From assembly GCA_905479655.1 (NCBI GenBank), contig CAJQNK010000005.1, forward strand, positions 9,544 through 73,543: 64,000 nucleotides of DNA. The letters are read 5' to 3'. The DNA comes from an uncultured bacterium (GTDB taxonomy: Bacteria > Acidobacteriota > Thermoanaerobaculia > Multivoradales > JAHEKO01). This document shows positions 1 to 33,304 of this stretch, piece by piece (the stretch's first letter is position 1; each line of letters begins with the position of its first letter). The notes beneath the pieces were generated by a model. That model ran no database searches, was not told the origin of the DNA, and was given only the letters and a program-made list of their open reading frames with translations. A program made the translations under genes and the position numbers.

Positions 1-747
1 GCCGACCTCTACTTCATGACCCAGCGGGTGGGCGTGCTGCCGACCCGGGAGCTGGTGAGTCCCCTCCAGCGGATCCTCTTCCCGTCGTTCAGCGGGCTGG
101 TCGACGACCCGGCGCGGCTCCGTCGGGCGGTCCTGGAGTCGGTCAACGTGCTGGGGAGCCTGAGTCTCCCGGCCGGTTGCGGCTTCGCCCTGGTCGCCGG
201 CGACTTCGTGCCCCTGGCCCTGGGGCAGCGCTGGATGCCGATCGTGCCGCTGCTGGCGGTCCTCACCCCCTACCTCGGCCTGCGGGCCACGCTGTCGCAG
301 ACCCTGCCGTGCGTCATGGCCCTGGGCCGCACGCGGCTGCTCTTCGGGGTCAGCCTGGCCTACGCCCTCGTCCACCTGCCGGTCTTCGTCACCGGCACGG
401 CCCTCTACGCCCTGCCCGGCGCCATCGGCAGCATCGTCGTCGCCGGGGTCGTCTACACGGCGCTCAACGCCTGGATGCTGTGGCGGACGGTCGGGATCCG
501 GCCCGGGGAGATCGTCGCTCAGTTGGGCCGGCCCCTCGCGGCCACGGCGGTCATGGTGGCTGCCGTCCTGGCCCTGCGCGAGATCCTGCCGTCGCCGGTC
601 GCATCCGAGCTCCGGCGCTGGCTGACCCTGGGCGCCGAGGTCGGCCTCGGTGGCGCCGGCTACGCCGTCGCCCTCGGGGTCCTGTGGCGTTGGAGGGGTC
701 GTCCCCCCGGGATCGAAAGCCGCTTCCTGCAGCTCCTCGGTCGGTGA
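1..747 (+). CDS. Polysaccharide-biosynthesis / MOP-superfamily flippase (Wzx-like), C-terminal fragment. The gene begins upstream of the window.
   Basis: The ORF is open from position 1. The product is a hydrophobic multi-TM C-terminus typical of Wzx/MATE-like polysaccharide exporters. It sits next to GT4 and GT2 glycosyltransferases. Confidence 0.5.
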   Translation, partial: ADLYFMTQRVGVLPTRELVSPLQRILFPSFSGLVDDPARLRRAVLESVNVLGSLSLPAGCGFALVAGDFVPLALGQRWMPIVPLLAVLTPYLGLRATLSQTLPCVMALGRTRLLFGVSLAYALVHLPVFVTGTALYALPGAIGSIVVAGVVYTALNAWMLWRTVGIRPGEIVAQLGRPLAATAVMVAAVLALREILPSPVASELRRWLTLGAEVGLGGAGYAVALGVLWRWRGRPPGIESRFLQLLGR

Positions 748-762
748 ACCTCCCCCTCGGGC

Positions 763-1992
763 TCAGGGGAGGCGCGTCCGGGGCCCGTCACGGTCCGCCA
801 GATCCAGGAAGACGGCCTCCGTGCGTTTCGCGAGCGCCGGCCACGCGTGCTCGCCCGCCAGGCGTCGCCCGCCGCAGGCCAGGCGCTCGCGGAGCTCCGG
901 ATCCTCCAGGAGGCGCACCAGCGCCCGGGTCAACGCCTCCGGATCCCCCGGCGGGACGACCAGCGCGCTCTCGCCGTCGCGCAGGACCTCGCCGAGGCCC
1001 CCCACGCCGGTCGCGACCACCGGCACGCCCAGGGCCAGGGCCAGGTAGAGGACGCCGGACTGGCTGATCTGCCGGTACGGCAGGGCCACGACGTCGGCGG
1101 CGGCGAACCAGCGGCTCACCTCCGTGAAGGGGACGTAGTCGAAGTGGCGGACGGCGTCGAGGCTCTCGGCCCGGGCCTCGAGCTCTCGCCGTCGCGCCGG
1201 GGCCAGCTGGACCGGGTTGCCGGCGACCAGGAGGCGGGCGCGCCTTCCGTCCCGGGCGAGGCGGGCCTCGGCCACCGCGGGCCACGCGTCGAAGAGCACG
1301 TCGAGCCCCTTGTACTCCCGGAGGTAGCCGAAGAAGAGGACCGTCTCCTCGTCTTCGGCGAGCCCCAGCTCGCGACGGGCCGCTCCCGGGTCGATCGGCT
1401 CCTCCCCGTCGCCCGCGAAGAAGCCGTACTCCCCGTGGGGAATCACGGCGATCCGTCGCGGCTCGACCCCGAGCTCCTCGACCAGCCGCCGCCGATCGAC
1501 TTCCGAGTGGGCTATCACCCGGCGGGGGAGCCGGTGGATCCCCCTCTGGACGAGGGCCTGGAACGGGATCGGCTCGTGGGGCGTCACCTGGTGCGCCGTC
1601 GCCACGACGGGCAGTCCCAGGAGCCGCAGGAGGAGAAGATGGAGGAGCACGATCGGGTTGGTCGAGTGCAGGTGGACCACGTCGGGCCGCAGACGCCGGG
1701 CCAGCGCGGCGACGACGAAGGCGTCCACCACCGCCTCGACCTTGCGGGCGAGCGCCAGGGCGAAGCGCGGCCAGGGGCGCCGTCGCCCGCCATCCCGAGG
1801 ACGCCGGCTGAGACGCGCCGTCTTCCTCACGACGCGGACCCCGGCCGGGAGCTCCCGGCGGCCCTCCAGCTCGTAGCCGACGGCGGTCACCACGATCACC
1901 TCGTGACCGCGCTCCGCCAGCGCGCCGGCGAGGAGGTGCGCGTAGTGGATCAGTCCGCCCTGGCCGAACGTCTCCACCTCGAGGATCCGCAT
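763..1992 (-). CDS. Glycosyltransferase family 4 (GT-B fold)
   Basis: The N-terminus MRILEVETFGQGGL...GHEV is typical of GT4 enzymes, and the C-terminal half carries the E-x7-E region. Start chosen at ATG 1992. The ORF-track start at 2058 is a TTG that would add a 22-aa extension. Confidence 0.8.
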   Translation of the reverse strand: MRILEVETFGQGGLIHYAHLLAGALAERGHEVIVVTAVGYELEGRRELPAGVRVVRKTARLSRRPRDGGRRRPWPRFALALARKVEAVVDAFVVAALARRLRPDVVHLHSTNPIVLLHLLLLRLLGLPVVATAHQVTPHEPIPFQALVQRGIHRLPRRVIAHSEVDRRRLVEELGVEPRRIAVIPHGEYGFFAGDGEEPIDPGAARRELGLAEDEETVLFFGYLREYKGLDVLFDAWPAVAEARLARDGRRARLLVAGNPVQLAPARRRELEARAESLDAVRHFDYVPFTEVSRWFAAADVVALPYRQISQSGVLYLALALGVPVVATGVGGLGEVLRDGESALVVPPGDPEALTRALVRLLEDPELRERLACGGRRLAGEHAWPALAKRTEAVFLDLADRDGPRTRLP

Positions 1993-2128
1993 GGTGGGGA
2001 GTATCGCACCCGGAGAGGCCGCTCTTCCGCCGAGGGGGGCGTCGGCCGCCTTGTCCAAGGCGAGCGGCCCGCCGGGGCCGGCCGGTTAGAATGAAAGGAA
2101 CCAGGGGTGCGGAAGCGGATCGTTATCG
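1993..2128. promoter_or_regulatory. Divergent intergenic region between the GT4 gene (-) and the NRPS operon (+). A -10-like hexamer TAGAAT lies at 2087-2092 in a locally AT-richer stretch.
   Basis: The sequence ggttagaatgaaaggaacc lies about 35 nt upstream of the NRPS ATG. No clean -35 is present. This is a tentative call. Confidence 0.2.
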
Positions 2129-5100
2129 ATGACCAGTGCGGATCAGCGCGCCGCGCGCCTCGAGGAAGCCATCCGGCGGAAGCGCGCCACGGCTCGCTCC
2201 GGCGCCACGGCACTGCCGGCTCGGCCGGCGGACGAGCCCGCGCGTCTCGGCGAGATGCAACGCGGCCTCTGGCTGCTGCATCAGCTCGATCCCGCTTCGG
2301 CGGCCTACAACCTGGCGAGCGCGCATCGTCTCCGCGGTCCCGTCGACGCCGGTGAGCTCGAGAGGGCGCTGAACCAGGTCGTGGCCCGCCACCGTCTCCT
2401 CCGTTCGACCTACCGGGCGCGGGGCGACGAGGTCCTGCAGGTCGTCGGGCCCGCGGTTCGCCTGGCGATCGGGCGGCGGGAGGTCGAGGCAGGGGAGGCG
2501 ACGACGGCGGCGGTCCGCGCGGCCCGGGGGCCCTTCGATCTCGGGTCCGGGCCGCTGGTCCGGATGACCCTGATCGCGGAGGCGGGCGGCGCCGACGACC
2601 TCCTCCTCCTGGTGCTGCCCCACATCCTGTGCGACCAGCGCTCCCTCGGAGTGCTGTGGCGCGAGCTCGCGGAGGCCTACGCCGGCCGTCTGTCGGGGAG
2701 CCCGGAGCCCTTCCAGTACGACGACTGGGTCCACCGATCCCGGGGCGACGAGACGAAGCGCCGCGAGGACCTGGCGTTCTGGCGACGGCGACTGGACCCG
2801 TTGCCCGAGGCCCTGGAGCTGCCCTTCGAGACCCCGGCCGGGCCCTCGGGTGACGAGCCCGGCGCGCGCGGCCGCCTGCTGAGCGGGGAGCTCGACCCGG
2901 ACCTCCTCGAGGGCGTGCGTCACCTGGCCGCGGCCGTCGGAGCCAGCCCGTTCGCGGTCTACGCCTTCGCCTTCCGGCTGCTCCTCGACCGCCTGACGGA
3001 CGGCCGGCCGGTCGCCTTCGCGACGCCGGCCTCCACCCGCTCCCATCCCGCGACCGCGAACCTGGTCGGCTACTTCCTGAACCCGGTCGTGGTGCCGGCG
3101 AAGATCGACGAGGCGGTCCCGGCCCGGGCCGCGATCCGCGAGTTCGGCCGCGAGGTCCGCGAGCTCCTGGGCCGAGCCTCGGTGCCCTTCCAGACGGTGG
3201 CGGAGGAGCTCTCGTCCCGGCGTCATGGCGACCGGCACCCGATCCTCCGGAACCCGATCTTCCAGGCGCTGTTCGTCCACCGCGTGGCCGCCGCCCCGCC
3301 GAGCCTGGGGCGCACCCGGCTCGAGCCGGTCGAGCTGGACCTGGGGGAGTCGAAGTTCGACCTGACCCTGTTCGTGACGGAGGGCGAGCGCCGCCTGGAG
3401 GTCTCGCTGGAGTGCCGGACCGACCGGGTGCCCGAGCGCCGGCAGCGGGAGCTCCTGGGCTACTACGCGACGTTGCTGGAGGGCCTGCTCGAGGAGCCGG
3501 AACGGCCCACGGCCGAGCTCTCGATGCTGCGGCCGGAGGAGGCGGGCCGCCTCGCCGCCTGGTCCAAAGGGGACATGCTGCCGGCGGAGGAGGCTCCGCT
3601 CCTGCCGGCGCGGATCCTCGAACGGGCGCTGCGCTCTCCCGACTCGACGGCCGTGGAGTGGGGCGGCCGCCGCCGCAGCTACGCCGAGGTCTCCGAGGCG
3701 GCCGGCTCGATCGCCGGGCGACTCGCGGGAGCCGGCGCGCGACCCGGCGACCGCGTCGGCCTGTTCCTCGGGCGCTCCGACCGGATGGTCTCCGCCGTCC
3801 TCGGCATCCACCGGGCCGGCGCCGCCTACGTGCCCCTCGATCCGGCCTATCCGGCGGAGAGGAACCGCCGGGTGCTGGAGGACGCCGACGTGTCGGCTGT
3901 CGTCACCGACCGAGAGGCGCGCGACCGTCTGCCGGCGGGGTCGTGGCCGGTCGTCGACCTCGGTGACGCCCCGCCGGCCCCGGCCGAGCTCCCCGCGTCG
4001 CCGGAGCTCCGGCCGGAGATGCCCGCCTACGTCCTCTACACGTCGGGCTCCACCGGGCGACCCAAGGGCGTCGTCGTCAGCCACGGCAACCTGGCGACGT
4101 CGACCGCGGCGCGCCCCGCGGCCTACGACCTCGCCCCGGAGCGCTTCCTGCTGGTGCCGAGCGTCGCGTTCGACAGCTCGGTCGCCGGCCTGTTCTGGAC
4201 GCTGGCGACGGGGGGGACCCTCGTCGTCCCCACCGAGGACGAGGCGGCCGACCCCCGCCGGCTGGCCGACCTCGTGGCGCGAGCCGGGGTCACCGGGCTG
4301 TTGTGCGTCCCGTCGCTCTACCGGCAGCTCCTGCGCTCGGGCGCGGACCGGCTGCGCTCCCTCGCGTTCGCGATCGTGGCCGGCGAGACCTGTCCGCCCC
4401 GGCTCGTGGCCGAGCACTTCCGAGCCCTGCCCGCGACTCGCCTGTTCAACGAGTACGGCCCCACGGAGGCGACCGTGTGGGCGACTGTGGACGAGCTCAC
4501 CGTCGACGACTCGGGCGCGGCGGTGCCGATCGGCCGGCCCATCCCGGGTGTGTGGGTCGAGGTGCTCGACCGCGGCGGACGACCGGCGCCGCCGGGGATC
4601 CCGGGCGAGGCGCGCATCGCCGGTCCGACGGTCGCCCGGGGTTACCACCGGAGTCCCGAGCTGTCGGCGGAGCGCTTCGTCGAGCTGGGGGACGGCCGTC
4701 GCGCCTACCGGACGGGCGACCGGATGGCCTGGGCCGACGACGGGAGCCTGCGCTTCCTGGGTCGCCGGGACGAGCAGATCAAGCTCCGCGGCTTCCGGAT
4801 CGAGCCCGGCGAGGTGGAGACCGCGCTCCTGGGGCTCCCCGGGGTCGAGGAGGCGGCCGTCGTCGCCCGGACGCCGAGGGGCGGGTCGCCGGATCTCGCC
4901 GATCCCGCGCTCCAGCTCGTGGCCTTCGTCCGTGGGGGCGCCGCGCCGCCGGACTGGCGGGGGCAGCTGGCCTCCTCGCTGCCCGCGCACATGGTCCCGA
5001 GCCGTCTGGTCGAGCTCCCCGAGCTGCCGCTCCTGCCCAACGGCAAGGTCGACCGGCGGCGGCTGCGCGAGCTCCCCCTCGAGGCCGAGACGGCCGCGGG

Positions 5101-6211: not shown

Positions 6212-6212
6212 G

Positions 6213-7007
6213 ATGCGGACGGAGGTGGAACCGAGGCGGATTCCGGAGCGGAGCCGCGCGCTCCTCGACGGCCTGGCCGCGCGCATCCGGCCCGACGACC
6301 CGAGGCTGGAGGCGTGGTACCCGCGGTACGTCCGACAGCACAGGAGACGCCTGGCCGTGGACCTGGCGCTCGTGGAGAGGCACGTGAGGCTCGGCGCACG
6401 GATCCTGGAGGTGGGGGCGATCCCGCCGCTGACGACCGCGGCGCTGGCAGAGCTGGGCTACGCGGTTCGCGGCGTCGACCTCGCGCCGGCCCGCTTCGGA
6501 CGGGCGATCGCCGAGCTCGGGCTCGACGTCGCCGAGTGCGACATCGAGAGGCAGGCGCTCCCCTTCGCCGACGAGAGCTTCGATGCCGTCCTGTTCAACG
6601 AGCTCCTCGAGCACTTGCGGATCGACCCGCTGTTCACCCTGCGGGAGGTGCGCCGGGTACTGGTGCCCGGCGGGCTCCTGCTCCTCTCCACCCCGAACCT
6701 GCGCTCCTTCCGCGGCCTGCGCAACCTCCTGCTGCACAACCAGGGGCACGCCGCCTCGGCGGGCGTCTACGAGCAGTTCGAGAAGCTCGAGACCCTGGGG
6801 CACATGGGCCACGTGCGCGAGTACACGACCCGCGAGGTGACCGAGCTCCTCGAGCGTCTCGGTTACCGGGTCGACGTCGTCGTCTACCGCGGCGGTCACG
6901 GCCGGGGTCCGGTCGGAGTCGCGGAGCGGCTGGCGCCCTCGCTCCGCCCGTTCTTCTCGCTGATCGCGAGCCGGCTGAGCCGCTCGCCCGAGGACGGGGA
7001 CCGATGA
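6213..7007 (+). CDS. Class I SAM-dependent methyltransferase
   Basis: The Rossmann glycine-rich motif is ILEVGAIPP, with an acidic loop at VRGVDLAP. The gene starts 2 nt after the NRPS stop. Confidence 0.75.
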   Translation: MRTEVEPRRIPERSRALLDGLAARIRPDDPRLEAWYPRYVRQHRRRLAVDLALVERHVRLGARILEVGAIPPLTTAALAELGYAVRGVDLAPARFGRAIAELGLDVAECDIERQALPFADESFDAVLFNELLEHLRIDPLFTLREVRRVLVPGGLLLLSTPNLRSFRGLRNLLLHNQGHAASAGVYEQFEKLETLGHMGHVREYTTREVTELLERLGYRVDVVVYRGGHGRGPVGVAERLAPSLRPFFSLIASRLSRSPEDGDR

Positions 7008-7945
7008 CCGGCTCCCGGCTGAGCTCCGCGATCGACGGTCGGATCTTCGTCGTCGGCGTTCCCCGCTCCGGCACCACCCTGGTGCAGGCCCTCCTGGCGG
7101 CGCACGGTGCGGTGGCGTCGTTCACCGAGAGCCACCTCTTCGATCGCCACTTCGTCTTCCTGCCCGGCCTCGGCCGGCCGATCCTGACGCGGGACCCCGG
7201 GCCCCGGCTGCGCGAGTTCCTGGCCGAGAACGGCGAGGAGGCTCCGGCGGCCGCCGAGGAGTTCGCCGCCGCGGGCGGCGGCCTACGTGGATGGCGACCC
7301 CTGTTGCCGTTGCGCACCGGCTCGGTGGCGCGACGGCTTCTGCGGGTTCTGGACGAGCTGACCCTGCGCCGCGGGCGTGCCGTGTGGGTCGAGAAGACGC
7401 CGCGCCATCTGCGCTACGTTCCCTTCCTCGAGGGGGTGGCGGGACCCGCAGGGGGCGCCCGTTTCGTGCACGTGGTCCGGGAGGGGCTGGAGACCGTCGC
7501 CTCCCTGCGCGCGGCCTCGCGGGGCTGGGAGCGTCCCTACGATCTGGCGGCCTGCGTGCGACGATGGAACCGGGACATCGCCTTCTCCGCCCGCCGTCTC
7601 GCCTCGCCGAGCGACCACTTCGTCGTCTACGAGGAGCTCGCGGCCCGGCCGGAGGCGGTCCTCCGGACGCTCCTCGGCGAGCTGGGCCTCGTCTGGGAGC
7701 CGGAGATCCTCGAGCGCTACCCGACGGCCTCCGAGCGTCTCGTCACCGGGCAGGAGAGGGGGTGGAAGGGCGACGTGGGACGCGCCATCCGTCCCGCCCC
7801 GTCGTCGTCCTCGACGCTGAGCGAGGAGGAGCGTCGACGCGCGACCCGGTCGCTGCGCCGCGAGCCCTACGAGCGGATCCGTGGGCGGCCGCGGTCGCCG
7901 GTCGAGGCGACTCCGGCGCCGGGGAAGGAGGCAGGGGTCCGATGA
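7004..7945 (+). CDS. Sulfotransferase-family protein
   Basis: The 5-prime-PSB-like loop is VVGVPRSGTTL, and a 3-prime-PB-like region is RFVHVVREGLETVAS. There is an ATGA overlap with the methyltransferase stop. Confidence 0.7.
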   Translation: MTGSRLSSAIDGRIFVVGVPRSGTTLVQALLAAHGAVASFTESHLFDRHFVFLPGLGRPILTRDPGPRLREFLAENGEEAPAAAEEFAAAGGGLRGWRPLLPLRTGSVARRLLRVLDELTLRRGRAVWVEKTPRHLRYVPFLEGVAGPAGGARFVHVVREGLETVASLRAASRGWERPYDLAACVRRWNRDIAFSARRLASPSDHFVVYEELAARPEAVLRTLLGELGLVWEPEILERYPTASERLVTGQERGWKGDVGRAIRPAPSSSSTLSEEERRRATRSLRREPYERIRGRPRSPVEATPAPGKEAGVR

Positions 7946-8736
7946 GCGACACTCCGCACGTCTCCGTGGTGGTGCCGTTCTACGGCAGCGAGCGCCACAT
8001 CGCCGAGTGCATCGACTCGCTGCTGACCCAGGAGGACGTGGGCGGCCCCTTCGAGGTCGTCTTCGTCGACAACGGCTCGCAGGACGGATCCGCCGCCATC
8101 GTCTCCCGCTACCCCGAGCTCGTGGTCGTGCGCGAGACCACGCCGGGAGCCTACGCGGCGCGCAACGCGGGCGTGCGCGTGGCGCGCGCGCCGCTCATCG
8201 CGTTCACCGACGCCGACTGCGCCGTCGGCCGGCGGTGGCTGCGCTCGATCCGCGAGGGGATGGAGGATCCCGGAAGCGCGATCCTGCTGGGCACCTGTCT
8301 CTACCCGTACGAGGCCTCGTTGCCGCTGCGCCTCCTCGGAGCCTACGAGAACGCGAAGAGCCGGTATGTCCTCGAGCGCTGTTCGCCGGCCTACCGCTTC
8401 GCCTACGCCAACAACATGGCCGTGCGGGCCTCGGTGTTCGAGGAGGTCGGCCCGTTCCGCGAATGGCGGCGGGCCGGGGACACGGAGCTGGTGCACCGGC
8501 TGACGTCCAGGCGGCCGGACCTCCGGGTCGTCTACCGGCCCTCGATGAGGATCATCCACCGGGAGTTCCTGAACGCCCGTCACCGGCTGGGGCGGCTCAC
8601 CGTGTACACGAAGACCAACGAGAAGATCGGTACCTTCCGGGAGCTCGGCCTTCGGCAACGCTTCGGCGTCCTCGTCACCCTGCTCCGCAGCCTCCTGGCG
8701 GGCGGCCTGAAGCGGGTCAAGCGCTCGGCGTTGTAG
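7942..8736 (+). CDS. Glycosyltransferase family 2
   Basis: The N-terminus VSVVVPFYGSERHIAECIDSLL is typical of GT2 enzymes. The DxD region is FTDAD. There is an ATGA overlap with the sulfotransferase stop. Confidence 0.8.
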   Translation: MSDTPHVSVVVPFYGSERHIAECIDSLLTQEDVGGPFEVVFVDNGSQDGSAAIVSRYPELVVVRETTPGAYAARNAGVRVARAPLIAFTDADCAVGRRWLRSIREGMEDPGSAILLGTCLYPYEASLPLRLLGAYENAKSRYVLERCSPAYRFAYANNMAVRASVFEEVGPFREWRRAGDTELVHRLTSRRPDLRVVYRPSMRIIHREFLNARHRLGRLTVYTKTNEKIGTFRELGLRQRFGVLVTLLRSLLAGGLKRVKRSAL

Positions 8737-8845
8737 ACGCGGTCCTGGGCGGCTCGGCGACGACCGCGGCCGCCGGGATGGGAGGCCCGCCTCGGGGTCC
8801 ATCGACCCCCTCGCTGCGCTCGGTCGCCCAGGACGACACGCCTTG

Positions 8846-11800
8846 CTACTCCGCCCTACCCTCGACATCCCCGAGGATCCGGTCCTCCGCGACCCGCGCC
8901 AGGTCGCCCAGGATCGGGTGGGAGAACATCGTCTCCAGCGGCAGGTCGATGTCGAACTCGCGGCACAGGCCGAGCATCACCTCCATCGCCGCCAGCGAGG
9001 TGCCCCCGAGCCCGAAGAAGTCGTCGGCCATGCCGATGGGCTCCACGGTCAGCTCCCGGCCCCAGGCGCCGGCCAGGTACTCCGCCACCGGGCCCTCGGG
9101 GGCGCGGTACGGCCGGCGGTCGGTCGGGCCGGAGGTCGAAAGCGACAGGGCTGCCTCGTCGACCTTGCCGCTCCGGGTCAGGGGGATCGAGTCGACCCGC
9201 CGCAGCCGGGCGGGCACGACGGGCGCCGGGAGGAGCCGGCCGAGCCGCCGCCGGAGCTCGTCCTCGTCGAGCTCCCGAGAGGCGACGTAGAAGGCGTCCA
9301 GGGTCGTGCGGTCGAGGTCGTCGCCGCTCCGCTCCTCGTCGTAGCCGATCACCGCGAGGTTCTCCCGCACCTCCTCCTCGTCGATGTCGTCGTCGAGCTC
9401 CGCCAGCGCCTCCTCCCGGGTCTTATGGCCCAGACGGACGTCCCAGCTGTACGGCAGGGCGTAGTTGTGGAAGCCCCGCTCCCTCTTGTGGACCCAGATG
9501 CCCGTGTCGTTGATCCGGCAGTTGGTCGACCGGCCCGTGTCCGCCGGGCGCACCCAGGGGACCCTCTCCCGCAGGGTGGCGTAGAGCTCGTCCATGCCGA
9601 CGTCGCAGTAGCGGTAGAAGTCGACGAACCGGATCTCCTCGAAGATCCGATCGTCGCGGAAGATCTCGACGTCCAGGGAGCGGGAGACCTCGTCGGGCAG
9701 CCGGTGGTAGACCTTGCGGGCGGCCAGCACCGCGGCGTCGATCTCGTCGGCGCCGCGCCGGCCGTCGCGGAACATCTCCTCGGTCAGCCGGGTCTCGAAC
9801 ATCTGGCCGCGGGAGAGGCCGGTGACGATGATCGGGATGCCGAGCTGCCGCGCCCGGTGCACGCTCAGGGTGTAGATCGTCTTGAAGCAACCGTTGCAGA
9901 CGTTGGAGAAGCGCGCGAGGCTGTCGCGGAAGATGGCGTTCATGGCCGGTGTCGTGGCGAGCTCCACGGGCACGTCGAGCTCCGAGGTGACGCGGCGGAT
10001 GTTCCGCTTCGCGCTCTCCGAGATGAAGCCGTTGTCCAGCGTGAAGGCGTAGACCGAGAGGCCCATCTCGACCAGTCGGCACAGGGCGTAGGTGCTGTCC
10101 TTGCCGCCGCTGTAGAGCATGAGGCAGTCGACCTCCGGGCGGTGCTCCCGGGCGGACTCCTCGAACAGCGACCGCAGGTCGTCCAGGGTCCGGAAGTACG
10201 CCTGCGCGTGGTCCTTGATCGTGTCGTAGGAGCGGCAGACGGCGCACACGCCCTCCCCGTCGAGGCGCGCCCGCGGGTGGTTCGAGGGCAGGGCGCAGCG
10301 GAGGCACCGGCGGATCGCCTCGCCGGTCTCTGCGGGCGGCGCCGCCCGCCGCCGGTGGGAGATCACGGCGCACTGCTCGACACCGGGGAGCGAGAGCAGG
10401 GCGGCCTCGACCTCTCCGGGCTCGACGCGGAAGCCCGAGATCTTGAGCTGGCGGTCGAGCCGCCCCAGGAACTCGAGCTCGCCCCGCTCGGTCATCCGCA
10501 CCCGGTCGCCGGTGCGGTAGCGCAGCGCTCCCGGCGTCGTCGGGTCGGGGAGGAAGCGCTCGGCGGTGAGCGCCTCGAGGCCGTGGTAGCCGCGGGCGAG
10601 GCCGAAGCGGGAGATCCACAGCTCGCCCGGCACCCCCGTCGGCACCGGAGCGAGCGCCTCGTTCAGGACCGCGACCCGCACGTGGTCGGCGGGGAGCCCG
10701 ATGGGCACGCTGGCGGCCGTGTCCCGGGCCGGGTCGTAGCGGTGCGCCACGCAGCCGACCACCGCCTCGGTCGGGCCGTACTCGTTGTGGAGCTCGAGAC
10801 GGTGGTGGAGCTGCTCGCTGACGGCCGCGGCCAGGGAGGTCTTGAGATCCTCGCCGCCCACGACCATGCGGCGGATCCGCGATCCCTCGAGGCCGATCCG
10901 TCGCAGCAGCGAGAGGTGGGAGGGGGTGAGCTTGACGAGATCGACCGCGTTGTCGCGCGCCACGTCCAGGACGGCGGTGTCGGCGGCGTCGTCGGGCTCC
11001 GGGTAGACCACCAGGGTGCCGCCCGTCGTCAGCGGCAGGAGGAGGCTCGTGACGGTGAGGTCGAACGCCGGCGAGGTGAAGAGGGGAAACACGAGACGGT
11101 CGCCGCGCACGTACCGGCGGGAGGCCCACTCCAGGTAGTCCGCGAGCCCGCCGTGCTCGACGAGGACCCCCTTCGGCTGTCCCGTCGAGCCGGAGGTGTA
11201 GATCAGGTAGGCGAGGTCGCGCAGGTTCGGGGTCGGCCGGTCGAACGGGAGGGTCCGCCCGGCCGCGACGAGGTCGGCGATGGAGACGACCTCCACGCCC
11301 GGCGGTGCGGCCGAGGCCTCCGCGCCGGGGCCGGCTAGCAGGAGGCGGGCGCCGGAGTCCGCGAGGGTCCGGTCTCTCCGCGCCGCCGGCACGGGGTGGC
11401 CCAGGGGCACGAAGGCGGCCCGCGCCGCGAGGGCCCCCAGCACGGCGACGACCGTGGAGATGGACCGCCTGCCGGCGATCGCCACCCGGTCCCCCGGCTG
11501 GACGCCCCGCGCCACGAGGGCCGCGGCCAGAGCCCGGGAGCGGAGCCGGAGCTCGCCGAACGACACCTCCCGCGCCCCCTCCCGCAGAGCGATCCGGTCG
11601 GGCTCCGCCGCGGCCCGCTCCGCGAAACGCTCGACCACCGACCGGGTCGGCAACGGCCCGGAGTCCGAGGCGTCGAGCCTGGCCAGGACCCGCCGGTCGG
11701 AGCCCGCCAGGAGGTCGACCTCGGCCACCGGTCGGTCGGGGTCGTCGAGGAGGGCCTCGAGGAGCCTCTCGAAGTGCTCGAGGGCTCGTCGTTGGAGGGG

Positions 11801-13078: not shown

Positions 13079-13091
13079 GGGTCGGGATCTC

Positions 13092-13424
13092 TCATCGTCG
13101 GCGCGCCCGCAGCACGAAGTCGGCGAGGGCCACGGCCGTGCGGAAGTTCTCGACCACGAAGTCCGCGGGCCGGATCTCGATGTCGAACTCCTCCGCGGCG
13201 AAGGTGCCGAGCCGCAGGGCGGCGACCGAATCGAGGAGGTCGGAGAGCAGGTCGTCCTCGCGCCCCACCGTCGTCCCCGAGGTCACCAGCTCGTCGCGGA
13301 CGAAGGCGAGGATCCGCCGTTCGACCTCCGCCGTTCCCGGATCCGCCGTTCCCGGATCGGGCGTCCCCGGGTCGGAGGTTGCCGGAGCGGGCGTCCCCGG
13401 ATCGGCCTTCATGTCAGTGGGCAT
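13092..13424 (-). CDS. Standalone peptidyl/acyl carrier protein
   Basis: The phosphopantetheine-site-like motif is LLDSVAALRL. The N-terminus holds low-complexity DPGT repeats. An alternative start is the ATG at 13412. Confidence 0.6.
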   Translation of the reverse strand: MPTDMKADPGTPAPATSDPGTPDPGTADPGTAEVERRILAFVRDELVTSGTTVGREDDLLSDLLDSVAALRLGTFAAEEFDIEIRPADFVVENFRTAVALADFVLRARRR

Positions 13425-14997
13425 GATGGGTCTCCTCGGGGAGGAGGCGGAAGCGCAGGGCGGTGCGGTCCACCTTCCCGGTGGGCGTTCTCGGCAGGGA
13501 GGGGAGGATCACGACCTCGGCCGGGACGGCGTAGGTCGGGAGGAGCCCGGCGAGGTCGTCCAGGATCTTCCGGGGAGAGGCCGCGGGGTCGTCCGTGACC
13601 ACCACCGCGTGGATCACGGAGCTCCCCTCGCCGTCCGGCAGGGCGATGGCGGCGGCCTCCTCGATCGGATCGAGGGAGCGCAGGGCTCTCTCGACGCCCT
13701 CGAGCTCGACGCGGTGACCCCTGACCTTGACCTGGAGGTCGGCCCGGGTCACGAAGGCGAGATTCCCGTCGTCGAGGCGGCGAACCCGGTCGCCGGTCCG
13801 GAAGTAGAGGTCGTCGAAGCCGCCGGCCGTCGGCCGCCGGACCAGCGCCCGACGGTTGGCCGCCGGGTCGCCCCAGTAGCCGGCCATGACGGTCGAGCCG
13901 CGGACCAGCAGCTCCCCGGTCTCCCCGTCCGGCAGCGGCTCCAGGTCGTCGCCCACGACGAGCGTGGCCGACGTCGAGCAGGCCGTGCCGATCGGCAGCG
14001 GCTCGGCGGGCTCGACCCCCTCCGGCAGGTGGTAGCGGGTGCAGACGTTGACCTCCGTCGAGCCGTACACGTGGCTGAACCGGGCCGCGGGGAGCTGGCG
14101 CCGGAGTCGCGCCAGGTGCTTCGCGGGGAACGTCTCGCCGGCGAAGAGCACCCAGCGCAGAGAGCTCAGGTCCCCATCCTCCAGGCCGCCGCGCAGGGAG
14201 AGGTGGACGAGGGCCGTGGGCACGGAGTACCAGACGGTGACGCGCTCCCGCTCGAGCAGGGCCGCGAGGGAGGCGGGCATCTTCAGCGTCGCGGGTGTCG
14301 GCACGACGGTCGCCGCCCCGGCGCGCGCGGCGGCGTAGAAGTCGAAGGTCGCGAAACAGGTGTGGTGCGAGGAGTGGTTGCTGAGGCGGTCGTCGGGCCG
14401 CAACGAGTACTCGTCCGCCGCCCAGTCGGCGAAGGCCAGCGCGCTGCGGTGGGTGTGGAGGATGAGCTTTGGGGTTCCGGTCGAGCCGGACGTGTGGAGG
14501 ATGTAAGCCGGGTCGAGGTCGATCGTCCCGGTCTCCGGCGGCCGGTCGGTGGCCTGCTCGGAGACCGACGACCACGGGATCGGGCGGAGAGGCAGGTCGT
14601 CCGCTTCCTCCAGGCCGACGACGCTGGAGATCTCCGGGCAACTCGCGAGCGTCTCCCGCACCGCGTCCCGCCGGCCGGGCTCGGTCACGAGATGCCGGGC
14701 GCCGGTGGCGCGCAGGATGCGCACGATCTGGTCGACCGGCGAGCCCGGGTCGATCGGCACCAGGGCGCCGCCCGAGGCGAGGGCGCCGTGGAAGGCGACG
14801 GGCACGTCGAGACCCTTGCCGAGCAGGACCGCCACGCGGTCCCGGGGTTCGAGACCGGCTCCGAGCAGCACCCGCGCCAGGCCGTGGCTCCGGCGGGCCA
14901 GCTCCCCGTAGCTCAGGGTCTCCCCGTCGCAGCGCACCGCCGGCGCCTCGGGACGGCGCATCGCCGCCTCGTCGACCAGGCGGCTCAGCAGGGTCAC
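13414..14997 (-). CDS. Standalone adenylation (AMP-binding) enzyme that loads a free-standing carrier protein
   Basis: Motifs are YILHTSGSTGTPK, YGSTE, YFRTGD, VKVRGHRVELEGVE and LPRTPTGKVDR. There is no C or PCP domain. Start assigned to GTG 14997, which forms a GTGA overlap with the upstream gene stop. Confidence 0.8.
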   Translation of the reverse strand: MTLLSRLVDEAAMRRPEAPAVRCDGETLSYGELARRSHGLARVLLGAGLEPRDRVAVLLGKGLDVPVAFHGALASGGALVPIDPGSPVDQIVRILRATGARHLVTEPGRRDAVRETLASCPEISSVVGLEEADDLPLRPIPWSSVSEQATDRPPETGTIDLDPAYILHTSGSTGTPKLILHTHRSALAFADWAADEYSLRPDDRLSNHSSHHTCFATFDFYAAARAGAATVVPTPATLKMPASLAALLERERVTVWYSVPTALVHLSLRGGLEDGDLSSLRWVLFAGETFPAKHLARLRRQLPAARFSHVYGSTEVNVCTRYHLPEGVEPAEPLPIGTACSTSATLVVGDDLEPLPDGETGELLVRGSTVMAGYWGDPAANRRALVRRPTAGGFDDLYFRTGDRVRRLDDGNLAFVTRADLQVKVRGHRVELEGVERALRSLDPIEEAAAIALPDGEGSSVIHAVVVTDDPAASPRKILDDLAGLLPTYAVPAEVVILPSLPRTPTGKVDRTALRFRLLPEETHHAH

Positions 14998-16211
14998 GGG
15001 ATCACCTTCTGCACGGCCGGAGGCAGGAGCTCGCGCAGGGGCACGTCGACGTCGAAGCCCCGCTCGACGACCCAGATGCCGGAGATCACCGCGAGTCCCA
15101 CGGCCGCTACGGGCAGGGCGATCCGCCGGTAGAGGCCCAGCCGGCGGACGAGGAAGAGCACGGGGAAGAGGACGATCGCGATCGCGGTCTGCCCCGCCTC
15201 CACGCCGAGGACGAAGGCGACCACGGAGAGGCCGAGGTGCTCGTCGAGCACGCCGAGTTGCACCAGCGAGCCGGCGAAGCCGAGCCCGTGGAACAGTCCG
15301 AGGACGAAGACGATCGCCAGGATCCGGCCCCGCGTCAGCGTCTTCCCGAGGGGAACCAGGAGGTGGATCGCAGCCAGTGTGATGGAGGCCGCGATCACCG
15401 TCTCCACGAGCGCCTCGGGGAGGCTCGCGAGGCCCAGCGCGGCTAGGAGGAGCGCCACCAGGTGGGCCGCGACCAGGGTGGCGACGACGGTCACCACGTT
15501 GCGCAGCGCCGAGCCCAGGCCGTCGAGGGGTAGCCACCGGCCGTCCTCGCGGCGCAACGCCGCGGGCAGCAGCAGCGCGACCAGGAAGAAGATGTGGTCC
15601 AGGCCCAGGAGCATGTGCTCGGCCCCCAGGCGGACGAGCGCCAGGAAGCCGCTCAGGCGTCCGGAGGAGGTCAGGTCGAGCTCCTGTCGGCGCGAGCTCG
15701 GGCCGAACACCAGCGAGAACTGGTTCTCGTTGGCGAACGTCCCCGTCGCCCAGTTGTGCTCGACGAGCAGGAAGCCCCGGTGGCTGGGCTCCTCGTCGAG
15801 CAGCACCGAGTACTCGAAGGTCAGGGTGCCGGGGACGCCGTCGAGCCCCGGGAGCTCGAACGGCAGTTGCACGAAGCCGCCCCGCGCGTTCAGGAGGTGA
15901 TGCGGCCCGAAGTCGATCTCGAGCGGGCCGCGCGGGCCGGTGATCGTGACGTGGCTCCGGTAGTACCCCTGCAAGAAGTCGATCCGCTCGTCGAGGTTCT
16001 CGGCCGTGATCCCGTCCTCGGTGCCGGCGATTCCCAGGCCGTGGTTGAGATCGGCCAGCGCGATCTCGAAGCGCCCGGCGACCGAGTCCTCGTAGATCTG
16101 AAGGTAGAGGTAGCTGTCGCCCAGGGTGTGCGCCCGGGCCCCCGCCGTGCCCAGCAGCCCGAGGGCCAGCAGCAGAAGGCCGCGCGCGGCCCTCGGGAAG
16201 AGCCGGGTCAT
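14994..16211 (-). CDS. HupE/UreJ_2-family membrane protein (metal-transporter-like). It has a signal peptide and an N-terminal periplasmic domain.
   Basis: The signal peptide is MTRLFPRAARGLLLLALGLLGTAGARA. The conserved HupE/UreJ motifs are LGLDHIFFLVALL and LGLFHGLGFAGS. A possible upstream start lies at 16271; it overlaps the ACAD stop as ATGA and adds MIGTGMMRTGMIRTGIMRTG. Confidence 0.65.
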   Translation of the reverse strand: MTRLFPRAARGLLLLALGLLGTAGARAHTLGDSYLYLQIYEDSVAGRFEIALADLNHGLGIAGTEDGITAENLDERIDFLQGYYRSHVTITGPRGPLEIDFGPHHLLNARGGFVQLPFELPGLDGVPGTLTFEYSVLLDEEPSHRGFLLVEHNWATGTFANENQFSLVFGPSSRRQELDLTSSGRLSGFLALVRLGAEHMLLGLDHIFFLVALLLPAALRREDGRWLPLDGLGSALRNVVTVVATLVAAHLVALLLAALGLASLPEALVETVIAASITLAAIHLLVPLGKTLTRGRILAIVFVLGLFHGLGFAGSLVQLGVLDEHLGLSVVAFVLGVEAGQTAIAIVLFPVLFLVRRLGLYRRIALPVAAVGLAVISGIWVVERGFDVDVPLRELLPPAVQKVIP

Positions 16212-16280
16212 CCCGGTCCGCATGATCCCAGTCCGAATCATCCCAGTTCGCATCATCCCCGTCCCGATCATCCCAGTCCT
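16209..16280. repeat. Roughly 15-bp tandem repeat x about 5 (CATCATCCCNGTYCG-like). It spans the ACAD stop and the start region of the HupE-like gene.
   Basis: The sequence reads catcccggtccg catgatcccagtccg aatcatcccagttcg catcatccccgtcccg atcatcccagtcc. It encodes M-x-R-T-G repeats in the HupE-gene frame, each unit providing an in-frame ATG. Confidence 0.6.
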
Positions 16281-17413
16281 CGCAGCCCGGCGATCAGGTT
16301 CCGCTGGACCTCCGACGTACCCACGTAGAGCGGGGTGGCGAGGGCGTCGCGCAGCTCCCTCTCCAGCTCGTAGTCGACCATGTAGCCGTAGCCTCCGAAG
16401 ATCTGGATGGCGCTCCGGCACGCCTCGACGTAGGCCTCGCTGACCGCCAGCTTGGCGAGGGCCGAGTCGCGGACGGCCGTGCCGCGACGCATCCGGGTGC
16501 AGGCCGCCCGATAGAGCAGGAGGCGGGACGCCTCCAACGACAGCTCCATGTCGGCGATGCGGTGGGAGATGGCCTGGTGCTTCCCGATCGGCACCGAACC
16601 GGCGGTCCGCTCCCTCGCGTGGGTCACGCAGCGCTCGAGGAGCCGCTCCATGACACCGAGAGCCGGGGCCATGACCAGCAGCCGTTCCACGTCCATCGTC
16701 TGGTTGAAGATCATCGCGCCCGAGCTCACCGAGCCGACCACCGCGGATCCGGGGAGTCGGCACTCGTCGAGGTGGATCTGCGCCATCGGGCTCGTGCGCA
16801 GGCCCATCTTCTCCATCGGGGGTCCGACGGTCAGGCCCTCGGTGTCCCGCGGCAGCAGGAAACAGGTGACGCCGGCGAACCCCGCGCCGTCGGTCCGGGC
16901 GTAGATCACGAACAGCTCGGCGACGGGGGCGTTGGTCACGAAGGTCTTGGAGCCGGTCAGGATCCACTGGTCGCCGCTGGGCTCGGCGGTGGTCCGGAGG
17001 GCCAGGGCGTTCGACCCCGAGTCCGGCTCCGTCATGCCGGTGGCTCCGATGACGGAACCGTCGGCGAGGCGCGGCAGCCACTCCGCCTTCTGCTCCTCGG
17101 TGCCGAAGGCCGCCAGGGGCCCCTCGCACGAGGCCGCGTGGGCGGCGACCGAGAAGACCAGGCCGTTGTCGCGGGCGCCGTAGCCGATCCCCTCCAGGAT
17201 CGCCACGGCGGACAGCAGGTCGTGGCCCCCTCCGCCCCACTCCCTCGGCGCGAGCATCCCCTGGAGCCCGAACTCGGCACACGCGTCCCAGAGGGCGCGA
17301 GGGAACGAGCCCGCGCGATCGCGCTCGGTCACGCCGTCCGCCAGCACCCGGGACGCGAACTCGACGGCGCTCCGCCGTAGGTCGCGATGGTCGTCTGTCC
17401 AGTCGAAGTCCAT
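16268..17413 (-). CDS. Acyl-CoA dehydrogenase-family flavoprotein (likely an aminoacyl-S-carrier-protein dehydrogenase)
   Basis: The ACAD fold is full length. It contains GMTEPDSGSN, the FAD region IFGGYGY and a conserved C-terminus. It is operon-linked to the standalone A and PCP genes. Confidence 0.85.
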   Translation of the reverse strand: MDFDWTDDHRDLRRSAVEFASRVLADGVTERDRAGSFPRALWDACAEFGLQGMLAPREWGGGGHDLLSAVAILEGIGYGARDNGLVFSVAAHAASCEGPLAAFGTEEQKAEWLPRLADGSVIGATGMTEPDSGSNALALRTTAEPSGDQWILTGSKTFVTNAPVAELFVIYARTDGAGFAGVTCFLLPRDTEGLTVGPPMEKMGLRTSPMAQIHLDECRLPGSAVVGSVSSGAMIFNQTMDVERLLVMAPALGVMERLLERCVTHARERTAGSVPIGKHQAISHRIADMELSLEASRLLLYRAACTRMRRGTAVRDSALAKLAVSEAYVEACRSAIQIFGGYGYMVDYELERELRDALATPLYVGTSEVQRNLIAGLRGLG

Positions 17414-26877: not shown

Positions 26878-28374
<1,497 letters not shown>

Positions 28375-28432
28375 CGTCTCTCTCCTCGAAGGCGGTGTCG
28401 CGCCGGGTGGTCGTTCGTCGGTTGCGGGGAAA

Positions 28433-29383
28433 TCAGTTCTCGGGGTCTCGATCGCGGGTGGCCGTGGCCACGAAGAGGGTCGGTCCTTCGGCCCGCGGGT
28501 CCGGTGGCAGGGGCGCCAGCCGCTCGATCGTGAAGCCGGCTCCCGACAGCAGCTCGGTCACCTGCCGCCGGGAGAAGCCGAGCCACAGGTGCCCCATCTC
28601 CCGGCGGAAGGCCTCCCGATCGTGGGGCAGCATGTCGACCAGCAGGAGCCGTCCGCCCGGTCGGACGGCGCGGGCCGCCTCGGCCAGGACCTCGGCGGGC
28701 TCGGCGATGTGATGCAGGGTCAGGATGAGGGTGGCGAGATCCAGCTCGTCGTCCGCGACGGGCAGCGCCTCGAGCTCGCCCCGACGCAGCTCCACGCGCG
28801 GGTCGTCGCCCAGGCGGTGCCGCGCGGCCTCGAGCATGGCCTCCGAGCCGTCGACGGCCACGACCTTCGCGACCCAGGGTGCGAGACGCCGGCTCAGGCG
28901 GCCGGTCCCGCATCCGAGGTCGCCGACCACGGCGCCCGCGGGCAGGAGCGCCAGGAGCGCGGCCTCGTCGAGCCGCTCGCCGAACAGGCGGGCCCGGAGC
29001 TCGTCCCACTCCCCGGCCGTCTCGGCGAAGAAGGCCTCGGAGCGACTGCGGCGCTCGGAGATCACACTCGCGCGGCGCAACCGGTCCTGGCGCCACGGGG
29101 CCTCGCCCGCGAGCTCGGTCCGGACGACGCCCCAGAGGGCCGCTGCCGAGGAGTCGAGGTCACCGTTGCGCGCCTCGTAGAGCCGGCTCGTGCCTTCCGA
29201 GCGCACGGCCAGCCAGCCGCCGTCCGCCAGGGTCTTCAGGTGCCGGCTGACCGTCGACTGGGGGAGCTGCAGCACCTGACACAGCTCCGATACGGTGAGC
29301 TCCTCCCCCTCCAGGACCCCGAGCACACGGCAGCGGGTGGGGTCGGCGAGGGTCTGGGTGTGGTCGAGAATCGGTGATGTCAT
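28433..29383 (-). CDS. ArsR/SmtB-family transcriptional regulator fused to a SAM-dependent methyltransferase domain
   Basis: The N-terminal winged HTH is [41 protein letters not shown]. The C-terminal methyltransferase motif is [12 protein letters not shown]. Confidence 0.75.
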
Positions 29384-29497
29384 CCTGGAGAATCCGTCAA
29401 TCCGGCTGAAAGGATACTATCGGTCGCGGCAGGGGTCAAGGCTCGCTGGACGGCGGGACGCCCGTGGTGCTCCGGGGTGGAGTAGGCTGGGGCCTCC

Positions 29498-29965
29498 ATG
29501 GATCTCGACCGGACCCACGACGTGCTGGCGGCTTTCGAGCGTGAACGGGTCCGCTACGTCATTTTCGGGGCCGTGGCGCTGAATCTCCAGGGCCTGGCCC
29601 GCGCCACCCAGGATCTGGACGTCTTCGTGGCTCCGGAACGGGAGAACATCGACCGACTGAGGGCCGCCCTGATGAGCGTGTTCGACGATCCTTCCCTCGA
29701 GGAGATCACCGCCGGGGACCTGCTCGGAGAGTACCCGGCCGTCCAGTACGTCCCTCCGGAGGGGGCCTTCCACGTCGATATCCTGACCCGGCTGGGGTCG
29801 GCCTGGCGATTCGAGGACCTGGATTCGGAGCGGGTCGACTTCGACGGTCTCGAAGTGAGTGTCGCGACACCGGAGACGCTCTACCGGATGAAGAAGGGCA
29901 CGGTGCGGTCGGTGGATCAGGGGGACGCGGAGCGCTTGCGGCTTCGCTTCGGGTTCGAGGAGTAG
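29498..29965 (+). CDS. Nucleotidyltransferase-fold protein (minimal NTase, DUF2204-like)
   Basis: The segment YVIFGAVALNLQGLARATQDLDVFV matches the GS...G..R.T.DxD pattern of minimal nucleotidyltransferases. Confidence 0.4.
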   Translation: MDLDRTHDVLAAFERERVRYVIFGAVALNLQGLARATQDLDVFVAPERENIDRLRAALMSVFDDPSLEEITAGDLLGEYPAVQYVPPEGAFHVDILTRLGSAWRFEDLDSERVDFDGLEVSVATPETLYRMKKGTVRSVDQGDAERLRLRFGFEE

Positions 29966-33137: not shown

Positions 33138-33304
33138 CCGGCGGCCCGAGATGCGGCGGCGGGAGAGGAAGCTCGACCGCTGACGCACCTCCCGGCGGCC
33201 TCGGTCCCGCGCTTGACGCGGGATGGACGCGGCAGTATTCTTGCCGCACTGCGGCATGCGTCGCGAGACCGGGCCGGCCGTCGGACGGTGGGCCCGGAAC
33301 CCCC

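Follow-up and report, generated by a model that had tools for sequence, protein, structure and literature searches.

What does a short non-ribosomal peptide synthetase (NRPS) line make when its genes lie among those for a sulfotransferase, glycosyltransferases and a flippase, and which residues does it join? This question is raised by the first 17,413 positions of a 64,000-nucleotide stretch of DNA from an uncultured acidobacterium (hereafter, the window; contig CAJQNK010000005.1, positions 9,544 to 73,543, assembly GCA_905479655.1). We find that window positions 1–17413 hold a real, intact gene cluster for a small non-ribosomal peptide, which is the acidobacterial variant of a widespread orphan family, and that the same cluster reaches ~4 kb past the left window edge. 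Judged from sequence, and with moderate confidence, we predict that its thiotemplate line makes a tripeptide X-Asn*-His, in which X is a starter acid and Asn* is a cyanoalanine or isoasparagine residue.

The residue Asn* is predicted from NRPS2, one of two single-module NRPSs that lie on opposite strands. A preliminary description of the window correctly placed both genes and read NRPS1 as condensation (C), adenylation (A), peptidyl carrier protein (PCP) and thioesterase (TE) domains, C-A-PCP-TE; its reading of NRPS2 as a plain C-A-PCP module missed an insertion. Between the A-domain motifs A8 and A9, NRPS2 carries ~345 extra residues (aa ~905–1250), flanked by GRLDRQLKISGFRVEPGEVE (A8) on one side and by LPAPVVP and PLTRSGKVD (A9/A10) on the other. 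The insert contains a CxxC-x16-CxxC zinc ribbon (CLRC-x16-GVCAVC), an SGGKDS PP-loop and invariant cysteines in CxGC and STNC motifs. In a Pfam search no family spanned the insert, and all PP-loop matches were sub-threshold. The best curated profile was TIGR03573 (WbuX/N-acetyl sugar amidotransferase, NASAT; E 4e-29), with an alignment covering profile positions 3–324 of 344 and a score of 102 bits against a cutoff of 203. An AlphaFold (AF2) model of the insert (predicted local distance difference test score, pLDDT, 88.7) gave as its top fold match the Legionella enzyme LpNASAT (8WEX; template modelling (TM) score 0.59), followed by the sulfur-inserting PP-loop enzymes YcfA, TtuA and mmLarE.

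Identity between the insert and an annotated NASAT is only 25%. The aminomutase/amide dehydratase (AMDH) domain of CysH, whose reference sequence we took from the source data and supplement of PMC7966384, aligns with the insert at 49% identity and 66% positives over 337 aa (E 2e-125), with SGGKDS, CNGC and STNC all in register. On every testable feature, the insert is therefore a member of the AMDH family. In albicidin biosynthesis, the Asn A domain of AlbIV carries a 342-aa AANH-type insertion; AMDH is the homologous domain of CysH, from the cystobactamid pathway. When bound to CysH, L-Asn is dehydrated (−18 Da) to β-cyano-L-alanine only if AMDH is present, and deletion of the domain leaves no isoasparagine or cyanoalanine linkers at all (Gross et al. 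2021, PMC7966384). According to the same work, AMDH yields the nitrile, isoasparagine or unmodified Asn depending on partner enzymes; CysH purifies as a dark brown protein, and how it works is described as not understood; and many AMDH homologues lie in clusters of unassigned function (PMC7966384). The chemistry is thus experimental for CysH only and reported for AlbIV, while in the window it is the homology that is observed.

The A domain that houses the insert has the specificity code DLTKVGEVGK, an Asn code that differs at one position from those of AlbIV (DLTKIGEVGK) and CysH (DLTKLGEVGK). Specificity codes were anchored on GrsA numbering, with a GrsA segment that passed a D235-to-K517 distance check. 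The C domain of NRPS2 carries the motif HHLVTD. From the homology to CysH we infer that the NRPS2 AMDH converts carrier-bound Asn to β-cyano-L-alanine and/or L-isoasparagine.

NRPS2 thus shares with AlbIV (Xanthomonas albilineans) and CysH (Cystobacter velatus) an Asn A domain of the DLTKxGEVGK type with a ~340-aa PP-loop/AANH insertion, the SGGKDS motif, the tetracysteine ribbon, and the CNGC and STNC motifs. By contrast, AlbIV and CysH are stand-alone A-T modules for p-aminobenzoate (pABA) oligoamide gyrase inhibitors, whereas NRPS2 has its own C domain and belongs to a three-residue line. The window cluster lacks the pABA genes, CysJ-type hydroxylase and CysB shuttle of cystobactamid, and has glycosyltransferases, a sulfotransferase and a permease predicted to bind metal instead. 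In the window, in the source-contig region to its left (L090) and in related loci, there are no pABA supply genes or pABA modules and only three A domains, for X, Asn and His. Short A(AMDH)-PCP matches considered as AlbIV/CysH orthologues were dropped, as a cluster look-up showed them to be unnamed fragments. The component types of the cluster were already known (AMDH since 2014–2021, carrier-protein acyl-CoA dehydrogenases, and the anglerase described below since 2025), and the cluster is not an albicidin or cystobactamid cluster.

The cysteines of the insert raise a different view of its chemistry, namely that it adenylates the amide oxygen and then replaces O by S to give a thioamide, like CtaC, or by N to give an amidine, like NASAT. 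C157, C160 and C283 (insert numbering; CxGC...STNC) are invariant in the AMDH family and are not found in a canonical NASAT, and the CxxC aligns with the [4Fe-4S] CxxC of the sulfur insertase mmLarE, the best PDB sequence match (E 1.6e-5). CtaC is itself an Fe-S AANH enzyme acting on PCP-bound peptides, CysH is dark brown, and NASAT gave both the best profile and the best fold match. However, these cysteines also occur in the nitrile-forming CysH and hence cannot distinguish nitrile from exchange chemistry. The close relationship is moreover to an AMDH for which dehydration was observed in vitro and isomerisation was established by domain deletion, and the locus has no sulfur-carrier or glutaminase gene. 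We therefore consider exchange chemistry very improbable.

With the NASATs (WbuX/WbpG/PseA; LpNASAT), the insert shares its nearest fold and profile, as well as the two features that define that family, the tetracysteine CxxCXn[GN]xCxxC and the SGGxDS PP-loop (PMC10607449), here as a CxxC...GxCxxC zinc ribbon and SGGKDS. It differs in scoring half the family cutoff, in being embedded in an NRPS and in its substrate, which by homology would be carrier-bound Asn in place of the N-acetyl group of a sugar. A plain NASAT/amidine assignment was rejected on the score below the TIGR03573 cutoff and the three extra cysteines. CtaC (closthioamide) likewise belongs to the AANH/PP-loop enzymes, carries zinc, ATP and three-Cys motifs and uses only PCP-tethered substrates; by contrast, it is free-standing and exchanges O for S on backbone amides. 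Its published cysteine spacing (76/3/127) is similar but not equal to that of the insert (66/3/123), the stand-alone family differs again (79/118), and the CtaC numbering occurred in 0 of 120 retrieved homologues. The assignment as a CtaC-like Fe-S thioamide synthetase was demoted on the AMDH precedent and on this spacing. Together with the brown colour of CysH, the three cysteines suggest that AMDH has a metal site with Cys ligands, be it Fe-S or another.

The third residue is read from NRPS1, whose A domain has the documented His code DSALIAEVWK. Its TE carries GYSFG, an ordinary GxSxG motif, and would release the tripeptide. The C domain of NRPS1 (aa ~163–170) reads PHILCD in place of the canonical HHxxxD, having lost the first His and kept the second, catalytic His and the Asp.

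The arrangement of an AMDH-bearing Asn module followed by a His module recurs widely. A scan of one genome per species identified relatives of the insert in at least 544 species genomes, spread over ~12 phyla, including Acidobacteriota, Acidimicrobiia, Bacteroidota, Cyanobacteria, Verrucomicrobiota, Planctomycetota, Chloroflexota, Gemmatimonadota, Proteobacteria, Myxococcota and others; carriers include marine cyanobacteria and Roseobacter-group bacteria, and among the cultivable ones are Tropicimonas sediminicola DSM 29339, Neolewinella xylanilytica DSM 29526 and Roseovarius pelagicus HL-MP18. A HMMER search of 1.8 billion representatives returned 582 50%-identity clusters at E<=1e-30. Of the best 150 of these 582 matches, most were NRPSs ~1400, 1850 or 2600 aa long in which the insert occupies about aa 880–1260. 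We fetched ~85 loci from ~12 phyla. In every complete read-out, the insert-bearing A domain was of the Asn type, DLTKxGE[V/I][G/A], and the downstream module, where present, had a His-type code, DS[A/V]L[I/M/V/A]AEVW. Genomes of other phyla have the two modules side by side or fused into one protein, with C-A-PCP preceding C-A-PCP-TE.

Conserved neighbours in the related loci were genes for an acyl-CoA dehydrogenase-fold flavoenzyme (ACAD; 53 loci), a HupE/UreJ-2 membrane protein (44), an ornithine cyclodeaminase (OCD)-family protein (27), a glycosyltransferase (GT) of family GT1 (20) and an Sfp-type phosphopantetheinyl transferase (15); a TonB-dependent receptor was present in 9, mainly from Bacteroidota. 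The typical operon reads HupE/UreJ-2, lysine cyclodeaminase, ACAD, A, PCP, C-A[AMDH]-PCP, C-A(His)-PCP-TE, GT1.

Several variants and apparent exceptions were noted among the relatives. In four loci from long-read metagenome-assembled genomes (MAGs; L001, L085, L086 and L087), the NRPS genes are split into many short open reading frames (ORFs), which look like frameshift artefacts of assembly rather than gene fission. Because of this splitting, a first protein search had yielded only fragments of <=606 aa. Free-standing AMDH relatives of ~330 aa (28% identity, all cysteines kept) are common in Firmicutes, for example at L091 9001–9993 and L088 12001–12972, in the gene order carrier protein, AANH, AMP ligase(s), AsnB. 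One such gene lies inside a Wzx/Wzy polysaccharide locus of an Acetivibrionales MAG and another in a thiotemplate cluster on a Bacillus thuringiensis plasmid, where PGAP labels it 7-cyano-7-deazaguanine synthase. On a plasmid of Streptomyces sp. NBC_01216 (NZ_CP108680; L084 14068–18118), a more divergent AMDH-like domain, of 43% identity, forms the N-terminus of a "condensation domain-containing protein". This protein directly follows a separate A-domain protein with the non-Asn code DARHASLMT, with asnB immediately upstream, and is a split, non-Asn variant of the AMDH architecture.

The first residue, X, would be supplied by a starter cassette of free-standing A enzyme, free-standing PCP and ACAD, which the preliminary description had recognised as feeding a thiotemplate line of about three residues. 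Our analysis supports this. The best PDB matches of the A enzyme are LgrA module 2 (338 bits) and PltF (243 bits), the latter being the best free-standing A enzyme among the matches; with DltA at 178 bits, the enzyme is far from D-alanyl ligases of that type. The PCP has an LLDSV serine motif, and its position between A and NRPS2 is conserved in relatives. At its N-terminus, a DPGTx pentapeptide repeat is encoded by a 15-nt tandem repeat at 13330–13407 (5.2 copies). The best PDB match of the ACAD is the prolyl-ACP dehydrogenase AnaB (4irn; 334 bits, E 9e-99), followed by an annotated butyryl-CoA dehydrogenase at 282 bits, and its best NCBIfam models are RedW (374 bits) and PigA (359 bits). By these comparisons, the ACAD belongs with the aminoacyl/acyl-carrier-protein dehydrogenase group, its nearest characterised relatives being prolyl-carrier-protein dehydrogenases. 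The grouping with D-alanyl ligases and β-oxidation enzymes, which the preliminary description had named as grounds for refutation, was therefore not observed.

In AnaC/AnaD/AnaB (anatoxin), PltF/PltL/PltE and RedM/RedO/RedW, too, an A enzyme and a carrier protein, both free-standing, are combined with an ACAD-fold flavoenzyme. The resemblance to the last two of these cassettes had led the preliminary description to propose that the trio makes pyrrolyl-2-carboxyl-S-PCP from proline, which would then be extended to a tailored tripeptide. The affinity of the ACAD to AnaB, RedW and PigA, and of the A enzyme to PltF, fits this proposal. However, the RedW and PigA scores are far below the equivalog cutoffs of 650 and 500 bits, respectively, and the A-domain code, CFFYLAVVCK, has Cys in place of Asp235, bears no likeness to the proline code DVQxIAHV and is not known to match any other proline code. 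The substitution is secure because the A4 motif alignment is unambiguous, with HTCFATF in the window clade and HFD[M/I/Q/L]ST in other phyla. Asp235 of A domains binds the α-amino group of the substrate. Its replacement by Cys suggests that the starter X of the window cluster lacks a normal α-amino group.

Orthologous A enzymes in other phyla, for example at the cyanobacterial loci L032 and L045, keep Asp235 and adjoin a cyclodeaminase gene of the lysine rather than the ornithine type: the OCD-family neighbour scores 294 bits to lysine cyclodeaminase versus 136 to ornithine cyclodeaminase. As its product would be pipecolate and not proline, the canonical starter is probably L-pipecolate, and we regard this as the probable identity of X in most other phyla; in these sister clusters, the substrate of the ACAD is accordingly more probably pipecolyl than prolyl. 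Neither the window nor L090 contains a cyclodeaminase gene. Taken together, the A code and the cyclodeaminase of the sister clusters argue against the pyrrole starter, which we consider improbable. The D235C replacement runs throughout the acidobacterial clade, where it coincides with loss of the lysine cyclodeaminase and with gain of GT2, GT4, sulfotransferase, methyltransferase and flippase genes.

Combining these assignments, we propose the following pathway to X-Asn*-His. The free-standing A enzyme would load the starter acid X onto the free-standing PCP, as its domains indicate, and the AnaB/RedW-like flavoenzyme, by homology, may dehydrogenate X on the carrier. NRPS2 would then join X to L-Asn, consistent with its Asn code, and the embedded AMDH would give β-cyano-L-alanine and/or L-isoasparagine. 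NRPS1 would add L-His, consistent with its His code, before release by the TE. A bleomycin-like formation of a pyrimidine from Asn and His was considered by analogy only; no evidence for it emerged, and it was dropped.

Within the NRPS operon, translationally coupled to its neighbours, lies the gene that the preliminary description had called "HupE-like". The gene is as described; what had been missed is that it encodes an Ang-1/HupE-UreJ-2 protein, with a homologue that binds Cu and Ni. The called product (425 aa, starting at the ATGA overlap) has a signal peptide, a mature N-terminal His, a periplasmic β-sandwich (Ang-1) domain at aa ~28–200 and a permease domain with an Hx5DH motif. The ARA|H junction is invariant in the window clade, and the N-terminal His is kept in 89% across phyla; EHMLLGLDH, FHG and AAH motifs are conserved at 93–98%, and Hx5DH itself at 93–96%. 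The AF2 model (pLDDT 82) has 9GCE, Cu-bound Ang-1, as its top PDB match (E 1.6e-4, TM(target) 0.55), with further fold matches to the periplasmic zinc proteins ZrgA and PA4063. At the 5′ end of the gene, a 15-nt tandem repeat (16208–16279, 4.8 copies) encodes MRTGM upstream of the signal peptide. As this repeat precedes the signal peptide, the true start could be the Met at 16211 rather than at 16271.

The structure 9GCE is the Cu-bound Ang-1 domain of RbAng-1a, a Rhodobacteraceae HupE/UreJ-2 protein, which binds Cu2+ with a Kd of 74 nM and Ni2+ with a Kd of 220 nM via an N-terminal mono-histidine brace and has been proposed to capture metal for the fused permease (Nat Commun 2025, PMC12537917). 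The window protein resembles RbAng-1a in its signal peptide, mature N-terminal His, β-sandwich and PF13795 domain with Hx5DH. Identity in the aligned Ang-1 region is, however, only 14%, and metal binding by the window protein is a prediction.

Co-transcription with this gene suggests a peptide that acts together with Cu or Ni. In peptides, Xaa-Xaa-His is the classic amino-terminal Cu(II)/Ni(II)-binding (ATCUN) arrangement. Because this arrangement binds the two metals that the Ang-1 domain prefers, a role as a metallophore would be reasonable, although we hold it to be possible rather than probable. More speculatively, the cassette may make a widespread class of small glycosylated, ATCUN-like Xaa-Xaa-His metallophores with an oxidised pipecolate-type head and a nitrile or isoasparagine, whose metal or metal complex would be taken up by the Ang-1/HupE-UreJ-2 partner; the acidobacterial version would be sulfated and multiply glycosylated.

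The tailoring genes bear on what happens to the peptide after release. The preliminary description had singled out the combination of sulfotransferase, GT2, GT4 and flippase. This combination does exist, but as an addition, peculiar to one clade, to a core that is found far more widely. The full set of GT2, GT4, sulfotransferase, methyltransferase and Wzx flippase was seen solely in the acidobacterial clade of the window. Within the sampled loci, the first four of these and D235C are confined to L001, L004, L006, L007, L009, L012, L014 and L094, although the sulfotransferase and methyltransferase are lacking in some clade members (L002, L006, L012). GT4 is conserved there at 55–61% identity and is found in this clade only, and the methyltransferase is likewise clade-specific. 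The source contig adds a GT1 left of the window, which is UDPGT/EryCIII-like with "macrolide family glycosyltransferase" as its best NCBIfam match, and which is homologous to the GT1 of other phyla (29% identity, E 4e-19). Upstream of this GT1, a 270-aa protein (L090 14157–14969, ~3 kb left of the window start) gave a sub-cutoff match to Sulfotransfer_1 (E 0.0015) and may be a second sulfotransferase of the cluster. From gene content, the product in the acidobacterial clade would be glycosylated by GT1, GT2 and GT4, sulfated and methylated, and the MOP flippase would export the decorated peptide or a lipid-linked form of it.

The same genes allow the view that the peptide is itself a decoration on a lipid-linked, sulfated oligosaccharide or glycolipid that reaches the cell surface through a Wzx-type flippase. 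The locus does encode a MOP flippase, GT2 and GT4, so that the Wzx component of a Wzx/Wzy polysaccharide locus is present. A flippase also adjoins the cassette in Roseovarius pelagicus, a gammaproteobacterial MAG and a Chloroflexia MAG; in R. pelagicus it directly follows the NRPS within a nonulosonic-acid/polysaccharide locus. In addition, Firmicutes free-standing AMDH-like proteins occur in Wzx/Wzy loci beside a carrier protein, AMP ligase and AsnB, and the nearest fold of the insert is a sugar amidotransferase. By contrast, neither positions 1–17.4 kb nor the 10 kb to their left encode an initiating phosphoglycosyltransferase, Wzy or Wzz/Wza, and none appears among the Pfam annotations of window positions 1–25 kb with the 10 kb leftward. 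The accessory glycosyltransferase shared across the family is a macrolide/natural-product-type GT1, a kind of enzyme that works on soluble aglycones; the flippase is absent from ~84% of full-flank loci; and NRPS1 ends in an ordinary TE. We therefore regard attachment to a glycan as unlikely, and favour a small peptide that is tailored after release.

Several points weigh against the proposed metal-associated tripeptide pathway. All of its chemical steps rest on homology, and the family is an orphan without an assigned product. Residue 2 is not fixed, since AMDH can yield the nitrile, isoasparagine or unmodified Asn, and the ACAD could act on an intermediate other than the starter. As the NRPS genes are on opposite strands in the window, the order of NRPS2 and NRPS1 is taken from other phyla. 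Lipid-linked glycan assembly would account for the combination of flippase, GT2 and GT4 no less well than the tailoring of a small molecule. As for the link to metal, the window locus has no TonB receptor or classic siderophore importer, HupE/UreJ-2 is missing from ~40% of full-flank loci, and in the published neighbourhood analysis NRPS genes are not reported among the most frequent HupE/UreJ-2 neighbours (PMC12537917).

The genes of the cluster are listed in the table below. Since the window has a G+C content of 72%, genes were called by third-position GC, for which real frames reached 0.85–0.96, and then checked with Pfam and NCBIfam; every gene named in the preliminary description was recovered where it had been placed.

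Table. Genes and domains of the peptide cluster in the window (positions within the window; E-values and bit scores from profile searches).
Feature	Position	Strand	Basis and remarks
MOP/Wzx-type flippase, C-terminal 248 aa	1..747	+	Pfam Polysacc_synt_3 E 1e-14; NCBIfam MOP flippase; cut by window start
GT4 glycosyltransferase	763..2058	-	Glyco_trans_1_4 E 2e-30, Glyco_transf_4 E 9e-22; divergent from NRPS-TE gene
NRPS1 (module 3), C-A(His)-PCP-TE, 1360 aa	2129..6211	+	Pfam Condensation/AMP-binding/PP-binding/Thioesterase
Class I S-adenosylmethionine (SAM)-dependent methyltransferase	6213..7007	+	Methyltransf_11/23/25
Sulfotransferase (Sulfotransfer_3)	7004..7945	+	PF13469 E 5e-23
GT2 glycosyltransferase	7942..8736	+	Glycos_transf_2 E 5e-26
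NRPS2 (module 2), C-A(Asn)[AMDH insertion]-PCP, 1410 aa	8846..13078	-	Pfam domains
AMDH PP-loop domain inside NRPS2 A domain	9329..10366	-	49% identity to CysH AMDH
Free-standing PCP for starter unit	13092..13424	-	PP-binding match weak: 17 bits, below cutoff
Free-standing adenylation enzyme for starter	13414..14997	-	TIGR01733 330 bits, above cutoff
Ang-1/HupE-UreJ-2 membrane protein (HupE_UreJ_2)	14994..16271	-	PF13795 E 1e-30, 107 bits vs cutoff 24.5
ACAD-fold flavoenzyme	16268..17413	-	Pfam Acyl-CoA_dh N/M/C

Coupling between these genes is less uniform than the ATGA/GTGA overlap "at every junction" that had been claimed. Four junctions have it: ATGA overlaps join ACAD to HupE/UreJ-2, methyltransferase to sulfotransferase and sulfotransferase to GT2, and a GTGA overlap joins HupE/UreJ-2 to the A gene. 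At the remainder, A and PCP overlap by 11 nt, a 13-nt gap separates the PCP gene from the TTG start of NRPS2, and NRPS1 and the methyltransferase gene are 1 nt apart. The gene order is repeated in related acidobacterial contigs (L001, L014 and L094, with full synteny of the tailoring set), and the arrangement is therefore not due to chance.

The left end of the cluster is cut by the window edge. We located the window proteins on a 122.9-kb scaffold (ENA ERZ23498415, SOLA22-1 scaffold_87), in which the complete flippase has 483 aa. Upstream of the flippase on this source contig are the GT1 (462 aa), the 270-aa protein with the weak Sulfotransfer_1 match, and a DUF3016 gene. On the right, the ACAD gene is followed by a 5′-3′ exonuclease gene and then by unrelated genes. 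Because relatives carry different genes at that position, we place the end of the cluster at the ACAD gene.

Other features were observed elsewhere in the window. At 26878–29965, an S-adenosylhomocysteine hydrolase gene lies beside an ArsR-type helix-turn-helix–SAM methyltransferase fusion, followed by a 155-aa AbiEii-like nucleotidyltransferase fragment. The longest ORF for the glutamate synthase large subunit (32066–37759, +) adds ~430 residues before the GATase_2 domain, and the real start is probably near 33.3 kb. Two DUF885 paralogues at 38199–39938 (-) and 56530–58347 (+) scored 74 and 595 bits, respectively. Near them are a TonB-dependent receptor gene (40053–42344) and a gene for a DUF3187 protein, a context consistent with a Gram-negative, Acidobacteriota-like host.

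AMDH domains have hitherto been linked only to the gyrase-inhibitor antibiotics albicidin and cystobactamid. In our comparison, most AMDH homologues belong to one conserved three-module line (X, Asn*, His), which regularly occurs together with a lysine cyclodeaminase, a glycosyltransferase of natural-product type and an anglerase permease predicted to bind Cu and Ni. The window adds a variant that would be sulfated and glycosylated, with a changed starter specificity. These findings raise the hypotheses that the family makes a nitrile- or isoasparagine-containing Xaa-Xaa-His glycopeptide, that orphan anglerases serve this pathway, and that the AMDH cysteines hold a metal cofactor. Through the conserved link to the Cu/Ni anglerase, two orphan systems become testable together.

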